Shown here: in pieces, positions 23,481-62,613 of the stretch | Layout: each line of letters starts with the position of its first letter | Numbering within the stretch: position 1 is the first letter of the stretch | Sequence record: PZ402305.1 | Source of the DNA: a phage | Strand: one strand, 5' to 3' | DNA length: 64,000 nt | Notes under the pieces: generated by a model | Database searches by the model: none | Told to the model about the DNA's origin: nothing | The model's input: only the letters and a program-made list of their open reading frames with translations | Translations under genes and position numbers: made by a program

Positions 23481-24281
23481 TTATTTGTTTAAGTGGTCTT
23501 CGACCATTTTAATGAAACCTTCATTGCTGAAGGCTGTTGCAGCTTTTTCTCGGTAAACAAAAACTCCACGATCTTCATAGAGAAGTGTTTCTTCGTAATT
23601 AACTCCAGGGTTAACTACAACCATTTTTGTTCCGATGTTAAGAGCAGGAAAAAGCTCCCAGTTAAAATTGATAACTTGATTAGAGCAACCCACTACAATC
23701 ACCATATCTTGAGCCGTCAAGCCGTCTAAGATGTGGTACATATCGTTATACAATGGGGCAGTCTCCCCAAAGAACACTACATTGGGCTTCACATACTTGT
23801 AATCATCTACATCGATAGCAGCATAGCCAACATCTTTGATGATTCTATTGTCTACGATCACTTCAGGCAGGAAGCCGTGAACATGTAGAACATCTTCATG
23901 AACAACACCCGCTTGTTCCAGAAGATCATCTACGTTTGTCGTGATGTTGATAACACGATCACAGCCGTACTCTTGGAACCACTCTGCGATCTTGCAATGC
24001 GCAGCGTTAGGAGACACACTATCCATCTCTACGCGACGTTTATTGTAGAAGTCATGAGTTTTACGGTAGAGGTTGTATCCCTCTGCATCTAATCCACCAA
24101 CAGTGCCAGGAACACACTGTTCTTGCTGGTAGCCAGCACGGAAATTGAAAATATCGCACACTTCAGAAAGGTCGTATTCATCCCACAAAGCTTTCCCACT
24201 ATCTGTATCAGTGCGGAAAGTACGTACACCGCTATCGGCGCTTAGACCCGCGCCGCTGATCACTATTAATCGTCTTGGCAT
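23481..24281 (-). CDS. Sir2-family protein (NAD-dependent deacylase / ADP-ribosyltransferase-like), no Zn ribbon
   Basis: GAGLSADSGVRTFR, TTNVDDLLEQAG, HVHG, PNVVFFGE, VVGCS; no CxxC pairs seen. Confidence 0.7.
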   Translation of the reverse strand: MPRRLIVISGAGLSADSGVRTFRTDTDSGKALWDEYDLSEVCDIFNFRAGYQQEQCVPGTVGGLDAEGYNLYRKTHDFYNKRRVEMDSVSPNAAHCKIAEWFQEYGCDRVINITTNVDDLLEQAGVVHEDVLHVHGFLPEVIVDNRIIKDVGYAAIDVDDYKYVKPNVVFFGETAPLYNDMYHILDGLTAQDMVIVVGCSNQVINFNWELFPALNIGTKMVVVNPGVNYEETLLYEDRGVFVYREKAATAFSNEGFIKMVEDHLNK

Positions 24282-26541: not shown

Positions 26542-27483
26542 TTAATAACCTCCTTCAAAAGGCTTTACTACATGTTGATTAGCTTTAAAACGTTCAACAT
26601 AGTCGTTTTCGCCCATGTTTTCATATAGCTTAATAACAACATAAAAGTTTTCCCAAGCATATTCCCTAAACCAACCACTAGTGATGGATGTGCAGACTTT
26701 AGATAAAGCCATTATAAAACTTTGCTTAGGGGTTGGACCTCCGATCTCTTCACCGAAAGGAATTTGTGAACGTTCCAAAGCCAAAACACACGCTTCTTCA
26801 TAAACACCTAACAGCCGCACATGTTTTGGTTGAGCAAAAAACTTTTCTTTGCTGGTCATAACTTCACTTCCATCTTTCATATAAGATTTATATGCTGGAG
26901 CATCCATTAACGCGATTGCTTCATGGATAGAATCATGATCATAAACATACGGAACCTCGTCACCTTTAAAGAACTCTTTACTTTTTACGTTTAAGTTCGG
27001 ATGAGAGTAAGTGTATGTTTCTTTCTCACGCAACTCATAAATACTCTTAAGATTTTCTGGGATCTTTGCGCCCAGTGACCGCATGAAATGAATATCTTTC
27101 ATAGTTTTAAAGAAGTGAGGACTATCCTTTTTAAAACGATGACTCATTTTAAGAAGGTAGAGCACATCTAAAGGAGCAACAACATGTCCAGCGTAAGTTC
27201 GACGAACATCATCAGAATCTTCACAATAACTAATCAAAGCTTCTGTGCTATCTCCTTGAGAAGCAATATCGTATTCCAAATGTGCACCAGCTATCATTTT
27301 GACATGGCCTTTGTTCCCTTTACGTTCTACAAGTTCAACAAACTCGTCTTGAGAGAACATTTTTGATAATTCTTCCCACTCTTGTTCTGTACACAGGTAA
27401 TCTAAATCTACACAAGGGCGATACAAGTCTTTTCCCATGTCCATAGCATGAATTTGTAATGCACGGCTACCAATTAACACCAT
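26542..27483 (-). CDS. hypothetical protein (313 aa), possible nucleotidyltransferase-like N-terminus
   Basis: LIGSRAL...VDLDYL loosely resembles a GS...DxD motif; own promoter TTGACA-N17-TAAACT at about 27514-27542. Confidence 0.4.
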   Translation of the reverse strand: MVLIGSRALQIHAMDMGKDLYRPCVDLDYLCTEQEWEELSKMFSQDEFVELVERKGNKGHVKMIAGAHLEYDIASQGDSTEALISYCEDSDDVRRTYAGHVVAPLDVLYLLKMSHRFKKDSPHFFKTMKDIHFMRSLGAKIPENLKSIYELREKETYTYSHPNLNVKSKEFFKGDEVPYVYDHDSIHEAIALMDAPAYKSYMKDGSEVMTSKEKFFAQPKHVRLLGVYEEACVLALERSQIPFGEEIGGPTPKQSFIMALSKVCTSITSGWFREYAWENFYVVIKLYENMGENDYVERFKANQHVVKPFEGGY

Positions 27484-27542
27484 AATATTTCTCCTCTATT
27501 GGTTGATAGGTTAAGTTTATCAAGCTTCCAGATTCCTGTCAA

Positions 27543-27566
27543 TAAAAAACCCGCCGAAGCGGGTTA
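27543..27566 (-). terminator. rho-independent terminator (minus strand)
   Basis: CCCGC-UUCG-GCGGG plus T-run on the minus strand; promoter follows immediately. Confidence 0.65.
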
Positions 27567-27573
27567 TTATTTA

Positions 27574-27846
27574 CTAACACATTGAGGAAGAAGAGATCCA
27601 AACACCTCTTGTGGTTAAACCATTTTCATCCAACTCTACACCATAATCTTCACAAATGAAATCAATATAGTGATCTGCGGCTGGCGTTCCTGTAGGGTAA
27701 TAAGTTTCTCCGTTACCGTAGTCACCTATCCAAGCTTGTTCCTGAAACTGTTCACAAAGTTCTTCAATTTCCTTACGAAACTTTCTTTGTGCTTGTTCCA
27801 TCTCTTTAACTTTCTTTTTTATCAGCAGTTCGCCTTCAGACTCCAC
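27574..27846 (-). CDS. small acidic protein, C-terminal VWISSSSMC
   Basis: One of three tandem paralogs sharing helical N-terminus and W-x-S-S-S-x-C end. Confidence 0.5.
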   Translation of the reverse strand: MESEGELLIKKKVKEMEQAQRKFRKEIEELCEQFQEQAWIGDYGNGETYYPTGTPAADHYIDFICEDYGVELDENGLTTRGVWISSSSMC

Positions 27847-27855
27847 AATCTCTCC

Positions 27856-28074
27856 TTAACAGCTACTACTGTGCCAAACGCCTTGAGAATTAACAACGAA
27901 ACCATCATCACCTTCACCATAACAAGAAGAGGATTGCCAATCTTCAAAACAGATTGCGTCATCTTCTAAACTAAGACCAAAACCAGCATCTTCAGCTTCT
28001 TTTGTAAGTTCGTCCACCAAAGCCATAATAGCTTGGGCTTTTTCAGTTAATTCTTCAACATTACGATAACTCAT
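27856..28074 (-). CDS. small acidic protein, C-terminal VWHSSSC
   Basis: Start at internal ATG after AGAGGAG. Confidence 0.5.
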   Translation of the reverse strand: MSYRNVEELTEKAQAIMALVDELTKEAEDAGFGLSLEDDAICFEDWQSSSCYGEGDDGFVVNSQGVWHSSSC

Positions 28075-28354
28075 TAGTATTTCTCCTCTGGTTGGAAAAC
28101 GGAACGACAGGCCCACATAGAAGCTTCTTTCAACTTAGTCTTTGCTATTGAAATTTGGTCAAGGCGGGTGGATATATTGGTAGACTCTTCCAAATCTTCA
28201 CAATCATCCAGTTCAGCCCACAATTCAGACATTAGAGCATCAAAGATTAATCCTAATCGAACTTCAGCATCTTTAATAGCATTCACTTTACCAATTTTGT
28301 CATCGGTATGCGGTTTATAACCTTTGATATCTTCGATTCCCACTTTACCTCCTA

Positions 28355-28552
28355 TTAACAACTTAAAGAAGATGGATGCCAATTTGTTCCAGTATTCTCA
28401 TTTTCATCTTCTGGATCATAATAACCACCCATCCCATATTCAGGGGAGAAACTGAAACCTTCACCAGTCTCGTCTGCTAACTGCTCTGCTTCCGCTAAAG
28501 CCTCATAAGCTGCTTTTACGGCTTCTTCTACTGTTTTAAACTTGGTCGTCAT
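28355..28552 (-). CDS. small acidic protein, C-terminal NWHPSSLSC
   Basis: Third member of the trio. Confidence 0.5.
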   Translation of the reverse strand: MTTKFKTVEEAVKAAYEALAEAEQLADETGEGFSFSPEYGMGGYYDPEDENENTGTNWHPSSLSC

Positions 28553-28804: not shown

Positions 28805-29317
28805 TTACTGATCCGAACTCTGCCATAAAACCTCCTCAATCTTGTAGTTTGACTCCATCTCCAACACATTTCCACGAACGTCTCTCCGAAGAAAGGCATA
28901 AGCTTTATTAGGTATTGTAGACTCATATTTAACCATATCTGGCACAGCAAAAGATACTACTACTCCTGCTGGGCTTCTGTCAAGAGCCTTATTAATATTT
29001 CTAAGGATATCGTTAGCCAAGATTTCTGCCAATTCTCCAAGAACAGTTTCGGTTATATCTTTATATCCCATTAAATATTTGTTGATATCTTTCATCTCTG
29101 TATTGTTCAGAGTATAGTCCAAAGGATAGAAATTCAAAGCGGAGTCACTTTTATGTGTCCACATGAAATGCACCCGATCCGAGCAGAATCGTAACCCTCT
29201 ACGAAGAATATCTTCTACAACAGGCAGAATTTCTTTTGTCACATCATTAACCATGTTGTAATCTAAGATTTCTGCCAAGTTTGTTCTTTGTTCACCACGT
29301 TTACGTCTAGGAATCAC
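28805..29317 (-). CDS. hypothetical protein (170 aa)
   Basis: Track ORF. Confidence 0.45.
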   Translation of the reverse strand: MIPRRKRGEQRTNLAEILDYNMVNDVTKEILPVVEDILRRGLRFCSDRVHFMWTHKSDSALNFYPLDYTLNNTEMKDINKYLMGYKDITETVLGELAEILANDILRNINKALDRSPAGVVVSFAVPDMVKYESTIPNKAYAFLRRDVRGNVLEMESNYKIEEVLWQSSDQ

Positions 29318-29888
29318 TTGTTATCGCCCTCATTACCAAAGGTCGTAGAAAATCGTAAATCTCTTGTTTTGTTTTCCCACGAATGTTTAAACAAGGAACA
29401 TTATTGGCTTTAGCTATCTTCCAAGCCGTAGCTGTTCCACCTTTTGCATCTCCATGTTTATCAGTATTAGCACAAGCCAACAAGAAACATGATGGAGCAG
29501 GATTCTCCAAATCTCTGCCTAACACTTGATGCACATTACGTTGGTGCAATTTTCTAGCACCCTGCTTAAGCTTTTCATAAGCTGGGTGAACATCTTTGAT
29601 CCATTGCACAGAGATAGCATAGTTCATTGTATCTGGTTTTGCAAGAACAATAACATCACCTGGAATCTGATTACCTTTGAAATTTTCCCAAGGAACATAA
29701 ATCTCCTTGTTAGTAGGATTTTCAGACTCTTGGACACCTGTTTCAAAAGCAGAATCACTACCCTCTGCCTTCCCAGACCGTAATTTAAACCCAAGGTTTG
29801 AAAGCCATTTCCCTATGCCTACCATCAAAGCCCACTCTTCTTCAGATATGTCCCTACTTCCAACTCCCGTATAGAACAGTTCTGCCAT
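29307..29888 (-). CDS. DprA/Smf-like Rossmann-fold (SLOG-type) protein
   Basis: FYTGVGSRDIS ... LRSGKAEGSDSAFETG resembles the DprA GSR / SG.A.G.D core. Confidence 0.45.
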   Translation of the reverse strand: MAELFYTGVGSRDISEEEWALMVGIGKWLSNLGFKLRSGKAEGSDSAFETGVQESENPTNKEIYVPWENFKGNQIPGDVIVLAKPDTMNYAISVQWIKDVHPAYEKLKQGARKLHQRNVHQVLGRDLENPAPSCFLLACANTDKHGDAKGGTATAWKIAKANNVPCLNIRGKTKQEIYDFLRPLVMRAITSDS

Positions 29889-30203
29889 AATCACCTCAAC
29901 AAGTAATTTCAAAAGGTGTATAGGGTTCCGTATTTCTCATGATCCAAGGACTGCTAGGATTGCTGGGATCATAAGGACCAAAAGGTTTTATGGTAGGTTG
30001 TGTTTCTTTCTTCTGAATCTCTTCAAAAATACGACGAAGTTCAGAATATTCTTGATCCACCATAAGATTCGGTGCATCTGATTCTACAGCTTGCAGATTA
30101 TCTTCCTTAAAAAGAATCTCACGAACAAGATTAACATCTTCTGTTTCTAAGATAACTTCTTTACGGATATTGCCTACACTTTGAATAATTGTAATCTTAT
30201 ACA

Positions 30204-30947
30204 TTAATCCTCCTCAAGAGTTGAATAAAATTGAAGACCACCGTCCATATCGAAATAAGCAAATGTTAAGTTATTATTGAACACAGATCCAGTATCCATA
30301 TAAACACGATTCGCATTGATAATAGGTGTTTTTACATAAGAGTGTCCATGAAACACATAATCCACACCCATCACAACAGGAAGTTTCATTCCCTCTTTAG
30401 CACAGTCTACCATATCTCTGTCCCACATAAGTGCTTCAGCAAAACGGTTTTCCTGTGTTTTTGTCATCTTCGAAATGTATTCTGGAATATCTGTTACAGG
30501 GAGATATTCCAAAGAAGATGGATACCCACCATGAATAAACGCAAGTTTCATGCCTCTGTAGTTAACAATGAGAACAACAGGTAAATCTTCTGTCATCATT
30601 GCTAAGGCTGTAGCTCCTTCTTCACCACATTCTTCAAAGACCGTATATCCTCCATTTTGATACCAACACTCGTAGTAGCTACGATCTCCTTCCAGCATAC
30701 CTTTAATCATCATGTCTTCATGATTGCCACGAATAGCGTAGCGATTGTGTTTACGAGTAAATTCTAAAACACAACGAAAGTTTTGCTTTCCACGGTCAGT
30801 AAGATCTCCTAGAGATACAACCACATCTGTATCTCGGATACCTAACTTTGCCTTTCCTTTTTCATACAAATTATAACAACCGTGTAGATCTCCAATTATA
30901 AAAAGATCTTGATCGCTTTTAACAGTAATTTCTCTGTGTATGATCAC
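30204..30947 (-). CDS. Ser/Thr protein phosphatase (calcineurin-like metallophosphatase)
   Basis: GDLHGC, GDLTDRG, GNHE, HGH; GTG start after GAGGAGG. Confidence 0.75.
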   Translation of the reverse strand: MIIHREITVKSDQDLFIIGDLHGCYNLYEKGKAKLGIRDTDVVVSLGDLTDRGKQNFRCVLEFTRKHNRYAIRGNHEDMMIKGMLEGDRSYYECWYQNGGYTVFEECGEEGATALAMMTEDLPVVLIVNYRGMKLAFIHGGYPSSLEYLPVTDIPEYISKMTKTQENRFAEALMWDRDMVDCAKEGMKLPVVMGVDYVFHGHSYVKTPIINANRVYMDTGSVFNNNLTFAYFDMDGGLQFYSTLEED

Positions 30948-33535: not shown

Positions 33536-34228
33536 TTAAATAGCGGTTCCTTCGAAATCCGCCACATTTACGAGATTAATATTTTCAGATTTAGAAGTCA
33601 AGTTGTTTTCTGCAACAGATTTTTCTTCAGTATCCGCCTCGTTACCTGCCACGTTACGAGGTTCTTCTTCACCGTAGGGATTACCGAATTTCAAAAGATT
33701 GATCAATTCTTCTTTGGAGAAGTTTTCTAAATCATCGTCTGTTAATTCAATAATCTCGTCTTGTTCTTCAATAAATGTTTCACCACCAGAAAAAGCATCT
33801 CGCTTTTTAGCTACTTCCATAGCCTGTTCTGGTGTTGCCCCTGCATCAAGAGCAGCTAAAGCAAAGTCTGACCCACTCCCTACTGCATAATATTCTTCAT
33901 CAATCGGATATGCACGTGTTGGGTTGTTACCCTCGTGCAGGAAAATACGTCCGTCTGGATGAACAACAAGTGCAATAAACTCTTCATCTTCTTTGTCTGG
34001 ATCAGAGTGAATCATCAAACCAGGGACAGCATCACGTGCTGCTTCGCACTGTAGATTTTGTTCAAACCATTGAAAGAAAGAAAGCACGGAGGTCAGACGA
34101 CCAGCACCACCTACAAGGTAATCTCCAATTTTTCGGACCTTTTTGAAATTAATAGAATCTACACGTCCACCAAAAGTTACCTTACCGTCACTCAAAATCT
34201 TATTTTTGGTTGCAATAATTGTCGTCAC
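33536..34228 (-). CDS. hslV: HslV-like (proteasome beta-type Ntn) peptidase with acidic C-terminal extension
   Basis: N-terminal MTTIIATKN...GG..D (Thr2 nucleophile), YAVGSGSDFALAAL; about 75-residue acidic tail. Confidence 0.55.
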   Translation of the reverse strand: MTTIIATKNKILSDGKVTFGGRVDSINFKKVRKIGDYLVGGAGRLTSVLSFFQWFEQNLQCEAARDAVPGLMIHSDPDKEDEEFIALVVHPDGRIFLHEGNNPTRAYPIDEEYYAVGSGSDFALAALDAGATPEQAMEVAKKRDAFSGGETFIEEQDEIIELTDDDLENFSKEELINLLKFGNPYGEEEPRNVAGNEADTEEKSVAENNLTSKSENINLVNVADFEGTAI

Positions 34229-60574: not shown

Positions 60575-60646
60575 TGGCCCTGTAGCTCAATGGGAGAGCT
60601 GTCGGCTCATAACCGATAGGTAGCTGGATCGAAACCAGCCAGGGCC
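60575..60646 (+). tRNA. tRNA with CAT anticodon, tRNA-Ile2 (lysidine)-like
   Basis: Acceptor GGCCCTG/CAGGGCC, loop CTCATAA, encoded CCA; resembles bacterial tRNA-Ile2. Confidence 0.7.
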
Positions 60647-60651
60647 ACCAA

Positions 60652-60723
60652 CGTCTTTATGGTGTAATGGATAGCACAGGAGTCTTCTAAACTCTTAGTC
60701 AAGGTTCGATTCCTTGTAAAGAC
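60652..60723 (+). tRNA. tRNA-Arg (TCT)
   Basis: Acceptor GTCTTTA/TAAAGAC, loop CTTCTAA, T-loop TTCGATT, CCA. Confidence 0.7.
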
Positions 60724-60775
60724 ACCAGAACATTTTAACATGAATTAGCTCAAGTGATTTGAACCCACTACTGAT

Positions 60776-60896
60776 CATGGTGGCAGAGAATGAGGCAAGT
60801 ATGTCAGACATTATAAACAAAGGCCACGGTTATATTAGAAGACATAAATGCTCGAAGAGCACCGTTCGTGGAGAACGGGGGTTGGTGGAGTCACCA
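60776..60896 (+). ncRNA. second candidate structured RNA (about 120 nt)
   Basis: ATGGTGGC at about 60776 pairs with GTCACCAT at about 60889; track ORF 60759..60950 here is probably spurious. Confidence 0.3.
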
Positions 60897-60961
60897 TTCA
60901 TGGTAAAATGTTTTAAAAAACTATTGACAACAAACCTTATTTTATGTTAGATTATAAGTAT

Positions 60962-61049
60962 GGAAGGGCAAATCGACGTGGCGACGAAAACGGTCTTGAA
61001 AACCGCCGAGCTTGAAAGAGCCTTGGGAGTTCGACTCTCCCTCCTTCCG
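60962..61049 (+). tRNA. tRNA-Ser (TGA), type II
   Basis: Acceptor GGAAGGG/TCCTTCC, loop CTTGAAA, long variable arm, T-arm GGGAG-TTCGACT-CTCCC, G73, CCA. Confidence 0.7.
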
Positions 61050-61056
61050 CCAGATT

Positions 61057-61139
61057 GGTAGATTGGTGAAATGGTAGCCACGACAGTTTGCTAAACTGTA
61101 GTCGGAAACGGCGTGTAGGTTCGAGTCCTACATCTACCG
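61057..61139 (+). tRNA. tRNA-Ser (GCT), type II
   Basis: Acceptor GGTAGAT/ATCTACC, loop TTGCTAA, long variable arm, G73, CCA. Confidence 0.75.
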
Positions 61140-61273
61140 CCAAGTTCTTTTTAATATAGCTTACTTTAATAGAGTAAACTTTCGGCAGATGGCCCCCCAC
61201 CATCTTACCGATAACTCATAGTTAGTGGTGTGAACACTGGCTATCTTAAAAAGAATTTAAATATTAGTATTTA

Positions 61274-61358
61274 GGTGAGTTAATTCCGTAGGGGTAGCGG
61301 GGCAGACTGTAAATCTGTTATCATTGCGATTCGGGTGGTTCGACTCCATCACTCACCA
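61274..61358 (+). tRNA. tRNA-Tyr (GTA), type II
   Basis: GGTGAGT...GCAGACTGTAAATCTGT...ACTCACCACCA; close to the bacterial tRNA-Tyr pattern. Confidence 0.8.
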
Positions 61359-61367
61359 CCAAATTAA

Positions 61368-61450
61368 GATGAGTTGGCTGAATGGTTTAAGCGGCGGACT
61401 GTTAATCCGTGTTCGAAAGAACGATATAGGTTCAAATCCTATACTCATCG
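61368..61450 (+). tRNA. type II (Ser-like, G73) tRNA whose canonical fold gives anticodon GTT (Asn)
   Basis: Acceptor GATGAGT/ACTCATC, 3-bp D-stem, loop CTGTTAA between GCGGA/TCCGT, GNRA-capped variable arm. Confidence 0.45.
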
Positions 61451-61532
61451 CCAGAATTATGGACTTGTAGAGTTAAGGTAAACCCCCAGTCGCCAAGAGG
61501 CTTCTGGAATTGCAGGTATCGAATCCTGCCGA

Positions 61533-61604
61533 GTCCCAGCTTTGCTCCTATAGTATAATGGCTATTACAACGGTTTTGTAATCCGTGGATCTCTGTTCGA
61601 TTCA
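61533..61604 (+). tRNA. tRNA-Thr (TGT)
   Basis: Acceptor GCTCCTA/TGGGAGC, loop TTTGTAA, T-arm CTCTG-TTCGATT-CAGAG, CCA. Confidence 0.7.
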
Positions 61605-61931
61605 GAGTGGGAGCACCAACACAACATTAAGGGCACTGTGATTGATCGTCGTATCCTGTGCACAAGGTCTGTTCGAAAGACAGTGTTCTTAGTATTGTGT
61701 TGATCACAAAAAGAGTCACCTGAAACTTGACCGGAGTAGGGTTGGATGGGGTAAAAGAAGAAGCGGCTCTCCCATCGACAGCAACGAAGAATAATATTTG
61801 ACTTTGGTTTTGTATTATTTTAAGTTAGCTTACCGAACGTAGGGCTAGTCACCCAAAGGGATACTCGTCACTGTCCCACTCAATAAAACTATTGACAACC
61901 AATAGTAAAGTGTAGTATAGTAAAGATGTAG

Positions 61932-62002
61932 GGCGTTCTTGGTGTAGCGGTAGCATTCCGTCCTTCCAAGTCGGCGGCACGAGTTCGATCCTCGTAGAAC
62001 GC
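61932..62002 (+). tRNA. tRNA-Gly (TCC)
   Basis: Acceptor GCGTTCT/AGAACGC, loop CTTCCAA, T-arm ACGAG-TTCGATC-CTCGT; D-arm weak. Confidence 0.55.
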
Positions 62003-62103
62003 TCCAAATTATTTAATAAAGGGTTGCCAGAAAACTTTCTCTTTTACTCATGGTTTTCTCCTTCTCTCACACCTCTTCTGGTTGCCCTTCATTAAATGAT
62101 TTA

Positions 62104-62176
62104 TTGGTTTGTAGTGTAGTTAGGTAGCACACGACACTTTGACTGTCGTAGGTTTGGTTCAAATCCAGACAGACCA
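62104..62176 (+). tRNA. tRNA-Gln (TTG)
   Basis: U1:A72 and G73 (Gln identity), stem CGACA/TGTCG with loop CTTTGAC, CCA. Confidence 0.7.
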
Positions 62177-62184
62177 GCCATATA

Positions 62185-62258
62185 ACGGAATTTAGCTCAG
62201 TTTGGTAGAGTGTACGCTTTGGGAGCGTATTGTCGCAGGTTCGAATCCTGCAATTCCG
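62185..62258 (+). tRNA. tRNA-Pro (TGG)
   Basis: Acceptor CGGAATT/AATTCCG, loop TTTGGGA, T-arm GCAGG-TTCGAAT-CCTGC, A73, CCA. Confidence 0.75.
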
Positions 62259-62267
62259 ACCAATTAA

Positions 62268-62338
62268 ATGTTTCGTAGTTCAATGGTAGAACCCACGACT
62301 GATAATCGTGAGACACAAGTTCGATTCTTGTCGAAACA
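62268..62338 (+). tRNA. tRNA-Ile (GAT)
   Basis: Stem CACGA/TCGTG with loop CTGATAA; T-arm ACAAG-TTCGATT-CTTGT; CCA. Confidence 0.65.
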
Positions 62339-62419
62339 ACCAGTTTCCCGTTAGACTTACAGGATAAGAGTTCCACAGCTTATTGTGATGCTGGTTCGAA
62401 TCCAGCACGGGATACCTAA

Positions 62420-62495
62420 TAGCGGGATAGAGGAGTCTGGTCGTCCTCGCCAGTTTCATATGCTGGAGATCATTGGTTCAAATCCAATTCCCGCC
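62420..62495 (+). tRNA. tRNA-Met (CAT), initiator or elongator undetermined
   Basis: D-stem GAGG/CCTC, stem CCAGT/GCTGG with loop TTCATAT, T-arm ATTGG-TTCAAAT-CCAAT, 1:72 mismatch, CCA. Confidence 0.5.
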
Positions 62496-62613
62496 TCCAA
62501 ATATCGCTTGCCAGCGGTATCTTTGAAGACCTTGCCTGGTTCCTTCTAAGATGGAGGGGTGCGACTCCTTAACGCACAATTATAATAAAGCATTTCAAAT
62601 TAACAGTATTTAT

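Follow-up and report, generated by a model that had tools for sequence, protein, structure and literature searches.

Small acidic phage proteins with a near-invariant C-terminal Trp-Ser-Ser-Cys motif are encoded upstream of a MenT-like nucleotidyltransferase-fold enzyme in a conserved gene module

A 64,000-nucleotide stretch of phage DNA (sequence record PZ402305.1; hereafter, the window) encodes, between positions 27,574 and 28,552 of its minus strand, three small acidic proteins with a Ser/Cys-rich C terminus, here called A, B, and C. These proteins belong to a family known as PHROG 899, whose function is unassigned and whose known members nearly all lie in phage DNA. This small-protein family and the gene of a co-directional, downstream nucleotidyltransferase-fold enzyme form a conserved two-component gene module. 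We consider it very probable that the small proteins and the enzyme act as partners. A first-pass annotation, made from the letters of the window, had recorded no modifying enzyme in the vicinity of the three proteins; a gene for a nucleotidyltransferase-fold protein in fact lies directly downstream, and its discovery is the main advance over that annotation. The four genes of the module in the window are the following.

28355 to 28552, minus strand: small protein A; 65 amino acids, isoelectric point (pI) 4.05; YGMGG loop; tail NWHPSSLSC; canonical family member.
27856 to 28074, minus strand: small protein B; 72 amino acids from ATG, pI 4.05; tail GVWHSSSC; rare compressed-tail variant.
27574 to 27846, minus strand: small protein C; 90 amino acids, GTG start, pI 4.40; tail GVWISSSSMC.
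26542 to 27483, minus strand: nucleotidyltransferase-fold partner; 313 amino acids; DUF7277 plus DUF7275 (PF23942, PF23940); directly downstream of C.

By nucleotide comparison, the window is DNA of a phAPEC8-like E. coli myophage, with 99.9% identity to Escherichia phage vB_EcoM_01 and 99.3% identity to phAPEC8 (Phapecoctavirus, Stephanstirmvirinae). Existing annotation labels all genes at the small-protein locus "hypothetical protein." The three minus-strand open reading frames (ORFs) end exactly as the first-pass annotation had noted, and the pI values listed above bear out its description of their products as acidic. Each of the three is preceded by a Shine-Dalgarno sequence at the correct spacing. 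Among all stop-to-stop ORFs of at least 30 amino acids in the six frames of the window, only A, B, and C end in W..SS..C. Their mutual identity is 21 to 30%. The kinship proposed for them is upheld by PHROG 899, which matches A (E value, 1.4e-13), B (E value, 7e-6), and C (E value, 5.1e-14), with every match reaching the C-terminal end of the profile. Furthermore, the proteins were compared with their orthologues in L007, a related phage locus in which the neighboring enzyme is 77% identical to that of the window. Nonsynonymous divergence (dN) was low and synonymous divergence (dS) high (A, dN of 0.12 and dS of 3.6; B, dN of 0.17 and dS of 1.3; C, dN of 0.16 and dS saturated). Because the motif is exclusive to these ORFs, all three match PHROG 899, and dN is low against dS, we take them to be real, selected genes with homologous ends and not chance ORFs; as judged from their sequences, A, B, and C are genuine, paralogous coding genes under purifying selection. 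For small protein B, the most likely start codon is the ATG at 28074 (72 amino acids), as annotated in phAPEC8. A GTG start, giving 86 amino acids and an overlap with the Acb2-like gene described below, was considered and is probably wrong.

The family to which these proteins belong is large. The first homologue search returned close relatives and, unexpectedly, members from T4-like phages (Edwardsiella phage PEi20 and Enterobacter phage Entb_45). A tblastn search with one T4-like member matched 440 phage records, and a profile search of 1.84 billion representatives yielded 571 clusters (50% identity) at an E value of ≤1e-3. Nearly all profile matches finish at the final residue of the protein, and 143 of the 148 best matches are Cys-terminal. 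Among 268 collected members, 261 end in Cys; relative to that residue, these have Ser at position −3 without exception, Ser at −4 in 255 cases, and Trp at −7 in 254, while positions −1, −2, and −6 are variable. A YG.G loop is present in 258 of the 268. As read from this alignment, the family signature is a YG(M)GG loop plus a protein-ending W-x-[S/P/A]-S-S-x-x-C. The alignment of the 261 members thus agrees with the first-pass view that the Ser/Cys-rich C terminus is a positionally conserved functional motif; that annotation had left the function open, and the PHROG 899 entry carries none.

A and C fit the signature exactly. C has a YGNGETYYP loop with a long acidic insert and has homologues in Edwardsiella phage PEi20 and in Enterobacter and Klebsiella T4-like phages, so that its subfamily is also represented in T4-like phages. 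B ends in the compressed form W-H-S-S-S-C; this W-x-S-S-S-C ending, with Trp at −5, is found in 6 of the 261 members, and the Ser three residues after the Trp appears to be conserved in both tail variants. B also contains a second, internal DWQSSSC motif fused to a YGEG motif, and about 18% of all members have an extra internal [D/E]-W-x-S-S just ahead of the terminal motif. The terminal Cys is the sole Cys in 148 of the 261 members. With so many single-Cys members, the alignment appears to rule out an intramolecular disulfide or zinc site as the function of the family.

Scans of A, B, C, and long family members against Pfam, NCBIfam, and PADLOC gave nothing above threshold. No fusions of the small domain with the enzyme or with other domains were found, and long members merely add coiled-coil N termini. 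A degenerate DNA pattern for YGMGGTYYP was matched at 13 loci of uneven length and was not used in the statistics. Two T4 genes were considered as homologues and rejected, namely, e.2, which holds the slot syntenic to a Mosigvirus trio of small proteins and is unrelated, and nrdC.3, which is alike in size only.

The small proteins and the enzyme are linked whichever of the two is taken as the anchor. In the window, the enzyme gene begins at 27483, just downstream of the end of C at 27574 and on the same strand. When loci were looked up from a small protein, a DUF7275 gene was found within ~1.2 kb in six of six cases; in two of these six, which started from distant metagenomic members of the small family, a DUF7277-plus-DUF7275 gene of ~310 to 350 amino acids is next or next but one to the small gene. 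From the other side, 80 viral loci were fetched with the enzyme as bait (42 to 77% identity). A match to the hidden Markov model (HMM) of the small family was present in 69 of these, in 1 to 6 copies, always on the strand of the enzyme and nearly always upstream of it. Ten of the 11 HMM-negative loci hold divergent ORFs ending in W..SS..C (for example, NWSSSSAHC and DWDSSSANC). To this was added a clustering of all same-strand neighbors within 3.5 kb of the enzyme in 91 loci, which at 60% identity fall into 26 enzyme lineages. Here, 82 of the 91 loci and 24 of the 26 lineages have the small family, while the runner-up neighbor cluster reached 4 of 26.

The module is present in Stephanstirmvirinae, many Straboviridae, Pseudomonas Otagovirus, Acinetobacter Lazarusvirus, and jumbo phages, and neighboring paralogues have been retained by Stephanstirmvirinae, Straboviridae, Otagovirus, and Acinetobacter phages. 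Upstream of the enzyme gene, Mosigvirus Bas46 has an array of 3 small genes (L002, 4995 to 5789), Klebsiella phage KLB31 has 5 (L003, 4974 to 6615), and PE09 has at least 4 (L107, 1533 to 3582). The enzyme was found in 735 phage records. Across 185,579 bacterial and archaeal species genomes, it was found in only 5 loci, all of them on metagenome-assembled contigs, which leaves phage DNA as essentially the only place where the module occurs. In T-even relatives, the array sits where T4 has the unrelated e.2; a search of T4 positions 1 to 50000 and 62000 to 76000, which include the syntenic slot, detected no small-family gene and no gene for the enzyme, the remaining ~105 kb being outside the search.

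The linkage also has a boundary. In Streptomyces, Gordonia, and Vibrio phage loci (L104, L105, and L106), proteins encoded by stop-to-stop ORFs of 252 to 300 amino acids resemble the enzyme only in its C-terminal DUF7275 part, and no small-family gene lies within 4 kb of them. Because these DUF7275-only proteins have no small-family neighbor, the linkage rule is limited to the full-length enzyme of Gram-negative phages, and the DUF7275 domain may have an independent function.

The enzyme consists of an N-terminal Pol-beta-type nucleotidyltransferase domain (DUF7277) followed by a helical domain (DUF7275). An AlphaFold2 model with a predicted local distance difference test (pLDDT) score of 92.7 has the bi-lobed MenT-type Pol-beta nucleotidyltransferase fold, and in structure the enzyme comes closest to the tRNA nucleotidyltransferase toxins of the MenT/AbiEii type. 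All 91 loci retain G5-S6, D26-x-D28, and K112 and have E or D at position 70. The catalytic residues of MenT1 are D41, K137, and D152, that is, the first Asp of D-x-D, a Lys, and a distal Asp (PMC10435456); G5-S6, D26-x-D28, K112, and E/D70 of the phage enzyme appear to match the MenT catalytic elements. The candidate for the distal Asp, D130, whose equivalence is by motif order and not by superposition, is Asp in 62% of the loci and His in 31 of the 91. In MenT toxins, the phospho-acceptor stands two residues before the first Asp (T39 in MenT1 and S78 in MenT3) (PMC11375011), while the corresponding position 24 of the phage enzyme, assigned by sequence position only, is N, P, or C and not Ser or Thr. 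The extra C-terminal region of ~130 amino acids contains residues that are 100% invariant (H183-D184, H187, E229-E230, E237-R238, K262, C264, S266, S269, G270, and R273). Within it, the invariant motif at residues 262 to 273, K-V-C-T-S-I-T-S-G-W, resembles, when reversed, the small-protein tail W-x-S-S-S-x-x-C; this likeness may be a coincidence or may hint at a paired-Cys or shared-metal contact.

A Pfam scan of the enzyme at an E value of ≤1 gave only DUF7275, DUF7277, and a chance CLCA match, with no match to the AbiEii/DUF1814 model. The same result led us to reject the RNA-repair nucleotidyltransferase RlaP, a family mentioned for jumbo phages (PMC7824862), as an identity for the enzyme. 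PADLOC gave no match to the enzyme, and no PDB sequence was retrieved by a profile of the enzyme. In a few phage records, the enzyme is labeled "putative nucleotidyltransferase." In the literature searched, we found no mention of DUF7275 or DUF7277, no paper on this module, and no description of the motif, the small-protein fold, or the linkage to the enzyme.

The small proteins have a fold of their own. An AlphaFold2 model of A, built from a 127-sequence alignment (pLDDT, 91.5), consists of a helix (residues 8 to 29) and three strands (33 to 35, 43 to 45, and 58 to 60), with W58-P60 lying in the third strand and a short helical turn made up of S61-L63. The tail is thus probably part of a compact domain and not a free tag, in disagreement with the C-terminal tag proposed in the first-pass annotation. 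The metal binding suggested there is unlikely, family-wide, within a single chain, given the 148 single-Cys members; a site formed across chains is still conceivable. In the predicted strand order, the tail, which follows strand 3, and the loop that connects strands 1 and 2 would leave the mini-domain at the same end. On this basis, we infer that the invariant residues (Tyr, Gly-Gly, Trp, Ser-Ser, and Cys) may form one conserved surface. A Foldseek search of the PDB with the A model gave no match at an E value of <1, and a fold search of BFVD returned uncharacterized family members only. The only PDB sequences matched by a profile of the small family were low-complexity designed helical proteins, and we take these matches to be spurious.

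Three further features of the locus interrupt the series of module genes in the window.

28074 to 28343, minus strand: Acb2/Tad1 hairpin-domain protein; 89 amino acids, GTG start after AGGAGG; PF24729, PHROG 717.
27548 to 27565, minus strand: terminator-like hairpin plus T-run, between C and the enzyme gene; from a consensus scan, with a terminator annotated there in phAPEC8.
27514 to 27542, minus strand: putative sigma-70-like promoter, TTGACA-17-TAAACT with an extended −10 TG, ahead of the enzyme gene; from a consensus scan only, with 10/12 matches.

The three small genes had been described as adjacent, a point that needs correction: the 28074 to 28343 ORF lies between A and B, and phAPEC8 is annotated alike. 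This ORF matches PF24729 of Pfam with an E value of 1.2e-19 (70.7 bits; cutoff, 27) and PHROG 717 with an E value of 2.4e-30. By these matches, it is a homologue of the sponge that binds cyclic oligonucleotides and counters the cyclic-oligonucleotide-based antiphage signaling system (CBASS), and it stands outside the small-protein family. A, B, and C themselves have no Pfam match to Acb2/Tad1, and the fold searches of the PDB and BFVD with the A model gave only family members or nothing. In L007, A, B, and C are contiguous and the Acb2-like gene is absent, so that in the phAPEC8 lineage this gene looks like an insertion into the array. On the other side of C, the terminator and the promoter-like site would uncouple the small genes from the enzyme gene in the window.

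We tentatively favor the reading that the small proteins are the cognate acceptor substrates or adaptors of the enzyme, although we put its chances somewhat short of even. Under this proposal, the loop-and-tail surface would be both the docking site for the enzyme and the acceptor site, and the enzyme would move a nucleotide-derived group (a nucleoside monophosphate, or NMP) onto a hydroxyl of that site. The best candidate acceptor would be the invariant Ser three residues after the Trp, with the loop Tyr as the alternative, and the thiol of the terminal Cys would aid binding or chemistry. The variable helix face and the acidic loop could then steer each paralogue to its own target in the infected cell. 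Two properties of the module lead us to prefer such a role over a set of redundant inhibitors. First, a single enzyme goes with several paralogues of ancient divergence, which unrelated phage groups have retained next to one another; second, what these paralogues have in common is one invariant site, rich in hydroxyls and carrying a thiol, whereas the helix face and the acidic loop vary. The terminator and promoter-like site in the window are also compatible with abundant substrates and a scarcer enzyme, which favors the substrate or adaptor role. A more specific form of this proposal, possible in our view but doubtful, is that the tail and the YGMGG loop together make up a new kind of protein acceptor site, which would be covalently loaded with a nucleotide by the phage-specific MenT-like enzyme or in which the Ser would be activated to react with the terminal Cys; the paralogue array would then yield enzyme-armed effectors or decoys directed against the host.

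Several points weigh against a substrate or adaptor role. Gene linkage is a functional connection without a direction. The adjacency of loop and tail was read from the strand order and not from coordinates, and the tail serines may be kept for structure, since AlphaFold2 buries the tail in the fold. Seven members carry 1 to 4 residues beyond the Cys, which makes a free carboxylate nonessential; because of these members, it is probably the thiol that matters. Finally, the closest structural relatives of the enzyme, the MenT toxins, target tRNA and not proteins: enzymes of this type lengthen tRNA at its 3' end and are controlled by small antitoxins encoded upstream of them (PMC10435456, PMC11375011).

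The main rival explanation, which we judge to be unlikely, is modeled on the short antitoxin MenA1 acting on MenT1. The small proteins would be antitoxin-like regulators that bind the electropositive tRNA groove of a toxin-like enzyme of MenT/AbiEii type, with the Ser/Cys tail plugging or resetting the active site; the phage would use the enzyme on host or phage tRNA 3' ends, and the small proteins would be inhibitors that mimic tRNA. A single inhibitor would be enough for this purpose, yet each enzyme is accompanied by 1 to 6 anciently diverged paralogues. The small family has no sequence similarity to MenA1 or to any PDB chain, and the enzyme, for its part, lacks both the AbiEii/DUF1814 Pfam match and a Ser or Thr at the position equivalent to the phospho-acceptor (N, P, or C). 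A terminator and a promoter-like site between the genes would also be unusual in a toxin-antitoxin operon.

The counter-defense setting of the module supplies a further rival. Genes for nicotinamide adenine dinucleotide (NAD+) salvage (NAMPT/NAPRTase) lie 1 to 5 kb from the module or its DUF7275 part at L005 (7670 to 9034), at L006 (11021 to 12228, together with NMNAT-Nudix), and at L106 (1568 to 3223). Because these loci belong to three unrelated phages, the finding suggests that the module tends towards counter-defense regions. The small proteins might then be independent counter-defense proteins, either sponges that take up nucleotide immune signals as oligomers or acidic mimics acting to block a host defense protein, which are merely colocated with the enzyme in an accessory anti-defense region. 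Besides the NAD+ salvage genes, the Acb2/Tad1-type sponge gene within the array would fit this explanation, as would the aromatic residues, Gly-rich loop, and serines of the family, which are residue types that we would expect in nucleotide-binding pockets. It is nevertheless quite improbable: the linkage is specific, with the small family in 24 of 26 enzyme lineages against at most 4 of 26 for other neighbors, on the same strand and nearly always upstream; Acb2 itself is not conserved in the array; and scans of the small proteins against PADLOC, Pfam, and NCBIfam gave no match, nor was there a structural match to known sponges.

A last rival comes close to the idea of the first-pass annotation that the C terminus carries a modification or binds metal. 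Here, the small proteins would be precursors resembling those of ribosomally synthesized and posttranslationally modified peptides (RiPPs), of the lanthionine or aminovinyl-cysteine (AviCys) type, with a helical leader and a Ser/Cys core that is dehydrated, cyclized, or decarboxylated, or else the terminal Cys would be a metal or cluster tag between chains. The invariant Ser at −3 to the terminal Cys, a Ser/Cys spacing as in AviCys rings, and the presence of several precursor-like paralogues beside one enzyme agree with it, as does a subthreshold NCBIfam match to a class IV lanthipeptide model (E value, 0.05; 13.5 bits; cutoff, 25) that is most likely due to chance. We regard this reading as very improbable, because the supposed core is the most conserved part of the protein and lies inside a confidently folded domain, the reverse of RiPP logic; because the Pfam-annotated neighborhoods of six loci contain no LanB/LanM/LanC or YcaO and only one weak radical S-adenosylmethionine (SAM) match, in one locus and not conserved; because the 148 single-Cys members allow no intramolecular site; and because the proteins have no signal or export features. 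Both this reading and that of independent counter-defense proteins suit the linkage and fold data less well.

Among known systems, the MenAT/AbiE nucleotidyltransferase toxin-antitoxin pairs (MenA1-MenT1, MenA3-MenT3, and AbiEi-AbiEii) are the nearest kind, and the phage module differs from them in several tested features. The bi-lobed MenT-type Pol-beta nucleotidyltransferase fold is common to both. Unlike those toxins, the phage enzyme has no AbiEii/DUF1814 match, possesses the extra C-terminal region, and lacks a conserved phospho-acceptor Ser/Thr; its 1 to 6 small partners, with a unique fold and tail, are unrelated to MenA1, MenA3, and AbiEi; and this module is essentially confined to phage DNA.

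Other Pol-beta-fold enzymes provide precedents for the transfer of nucleotides to proteins. GlnD with PII, GlnE with glutamine synthetase, MntA with HepT, and CitX with CitD nucleotidylylate Tyr or Ser residues, and the ANT and Lnu relatives adenylylate hydroxyls of small molecules. The nucleotidylylation switches GlnD-PII, GlnE-glutamine synthetase, and MntA-HepT resemble the phage module in combining a nucleotidyltransferase-fold enzyme with a small protein whose exposed Gly-rich loop or tail carries an invariant hydroxyl residue, and in GlnD, the nucleotidyltransferase domain is joined to a second, His/Asp-rich domain. In contrast, no sequence or fold relation of the phage small proteins to PII or HEPN was detected, and the known systems have a single substrate and not a paralogue array. 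CitX/MdcG, enzymes of the nucleotidyltransferase superfamily, likewise put a nucleotide-derived prosthetic group on a Ser of the small acidic acyl-carrier subunits CitD/MdcC, which are encoded nearby; no homology to these was detected, and they belong to metabolic operons and not to phages and lack the C-terminal Cys motif. The Acb2, Tad1, and Tad2 sponges, in turn, are small, acidic, phage-encoded proteins of accessory regions, and an Acb2-type gene lies inside this very array, but A, B, and C have no match to a sponge model or fold, and strict linkage to an enzyme is foreign to sponges.

Beyond the module, the window contains a cluster of 10 tRNA genes on the plus strand at 60576 to 62499 (two for Met and one each for Arg, Ser, Asn, Thr, Gly, Gln, Pro, and Ile). 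Genes for tRNA also occur near the module in several of the phage loci examined (for example, L003) and might have a bearing on the module if tRNA is what the enzyme acts on. According to their positions in the phAPEC8 annotation, the surrounding minus-strand genes encode a Sir2-like protein (23481 to 24281), a DprA-like protein (29307 to 29912), a NinI-like Ser/Thr phosphatase (30204 to 30947), and an HslV-family peptidase (33536 to 34228).

Collectively, these findings describe a module that is widespread, occurring in many E. coli, Klebsiella, Acinetobacter, Aeromonas, and Pseudomonas phages of therapy use and of the BASEL collection; its absence from the T4 regions checked may explain why it has been neglected. 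It pairs an enzyme of the fold class of abortive-infection and tuberculosis toxins with a new mini-fold bearing a near-invariant C-terminal motif, and it sits amid known counter-defense genes (Acb2 and NAD+ salvage). The activity that joins enzyme and small proteins, once found, would be either a new phage strategy acting on tRNA and translation or a new protein modification. If the acceptor-site reading is true, the module would constitute an unrecognized protein-modification system in T4-like, phAPEC8-like, Otagovirus, and jumbo phages.

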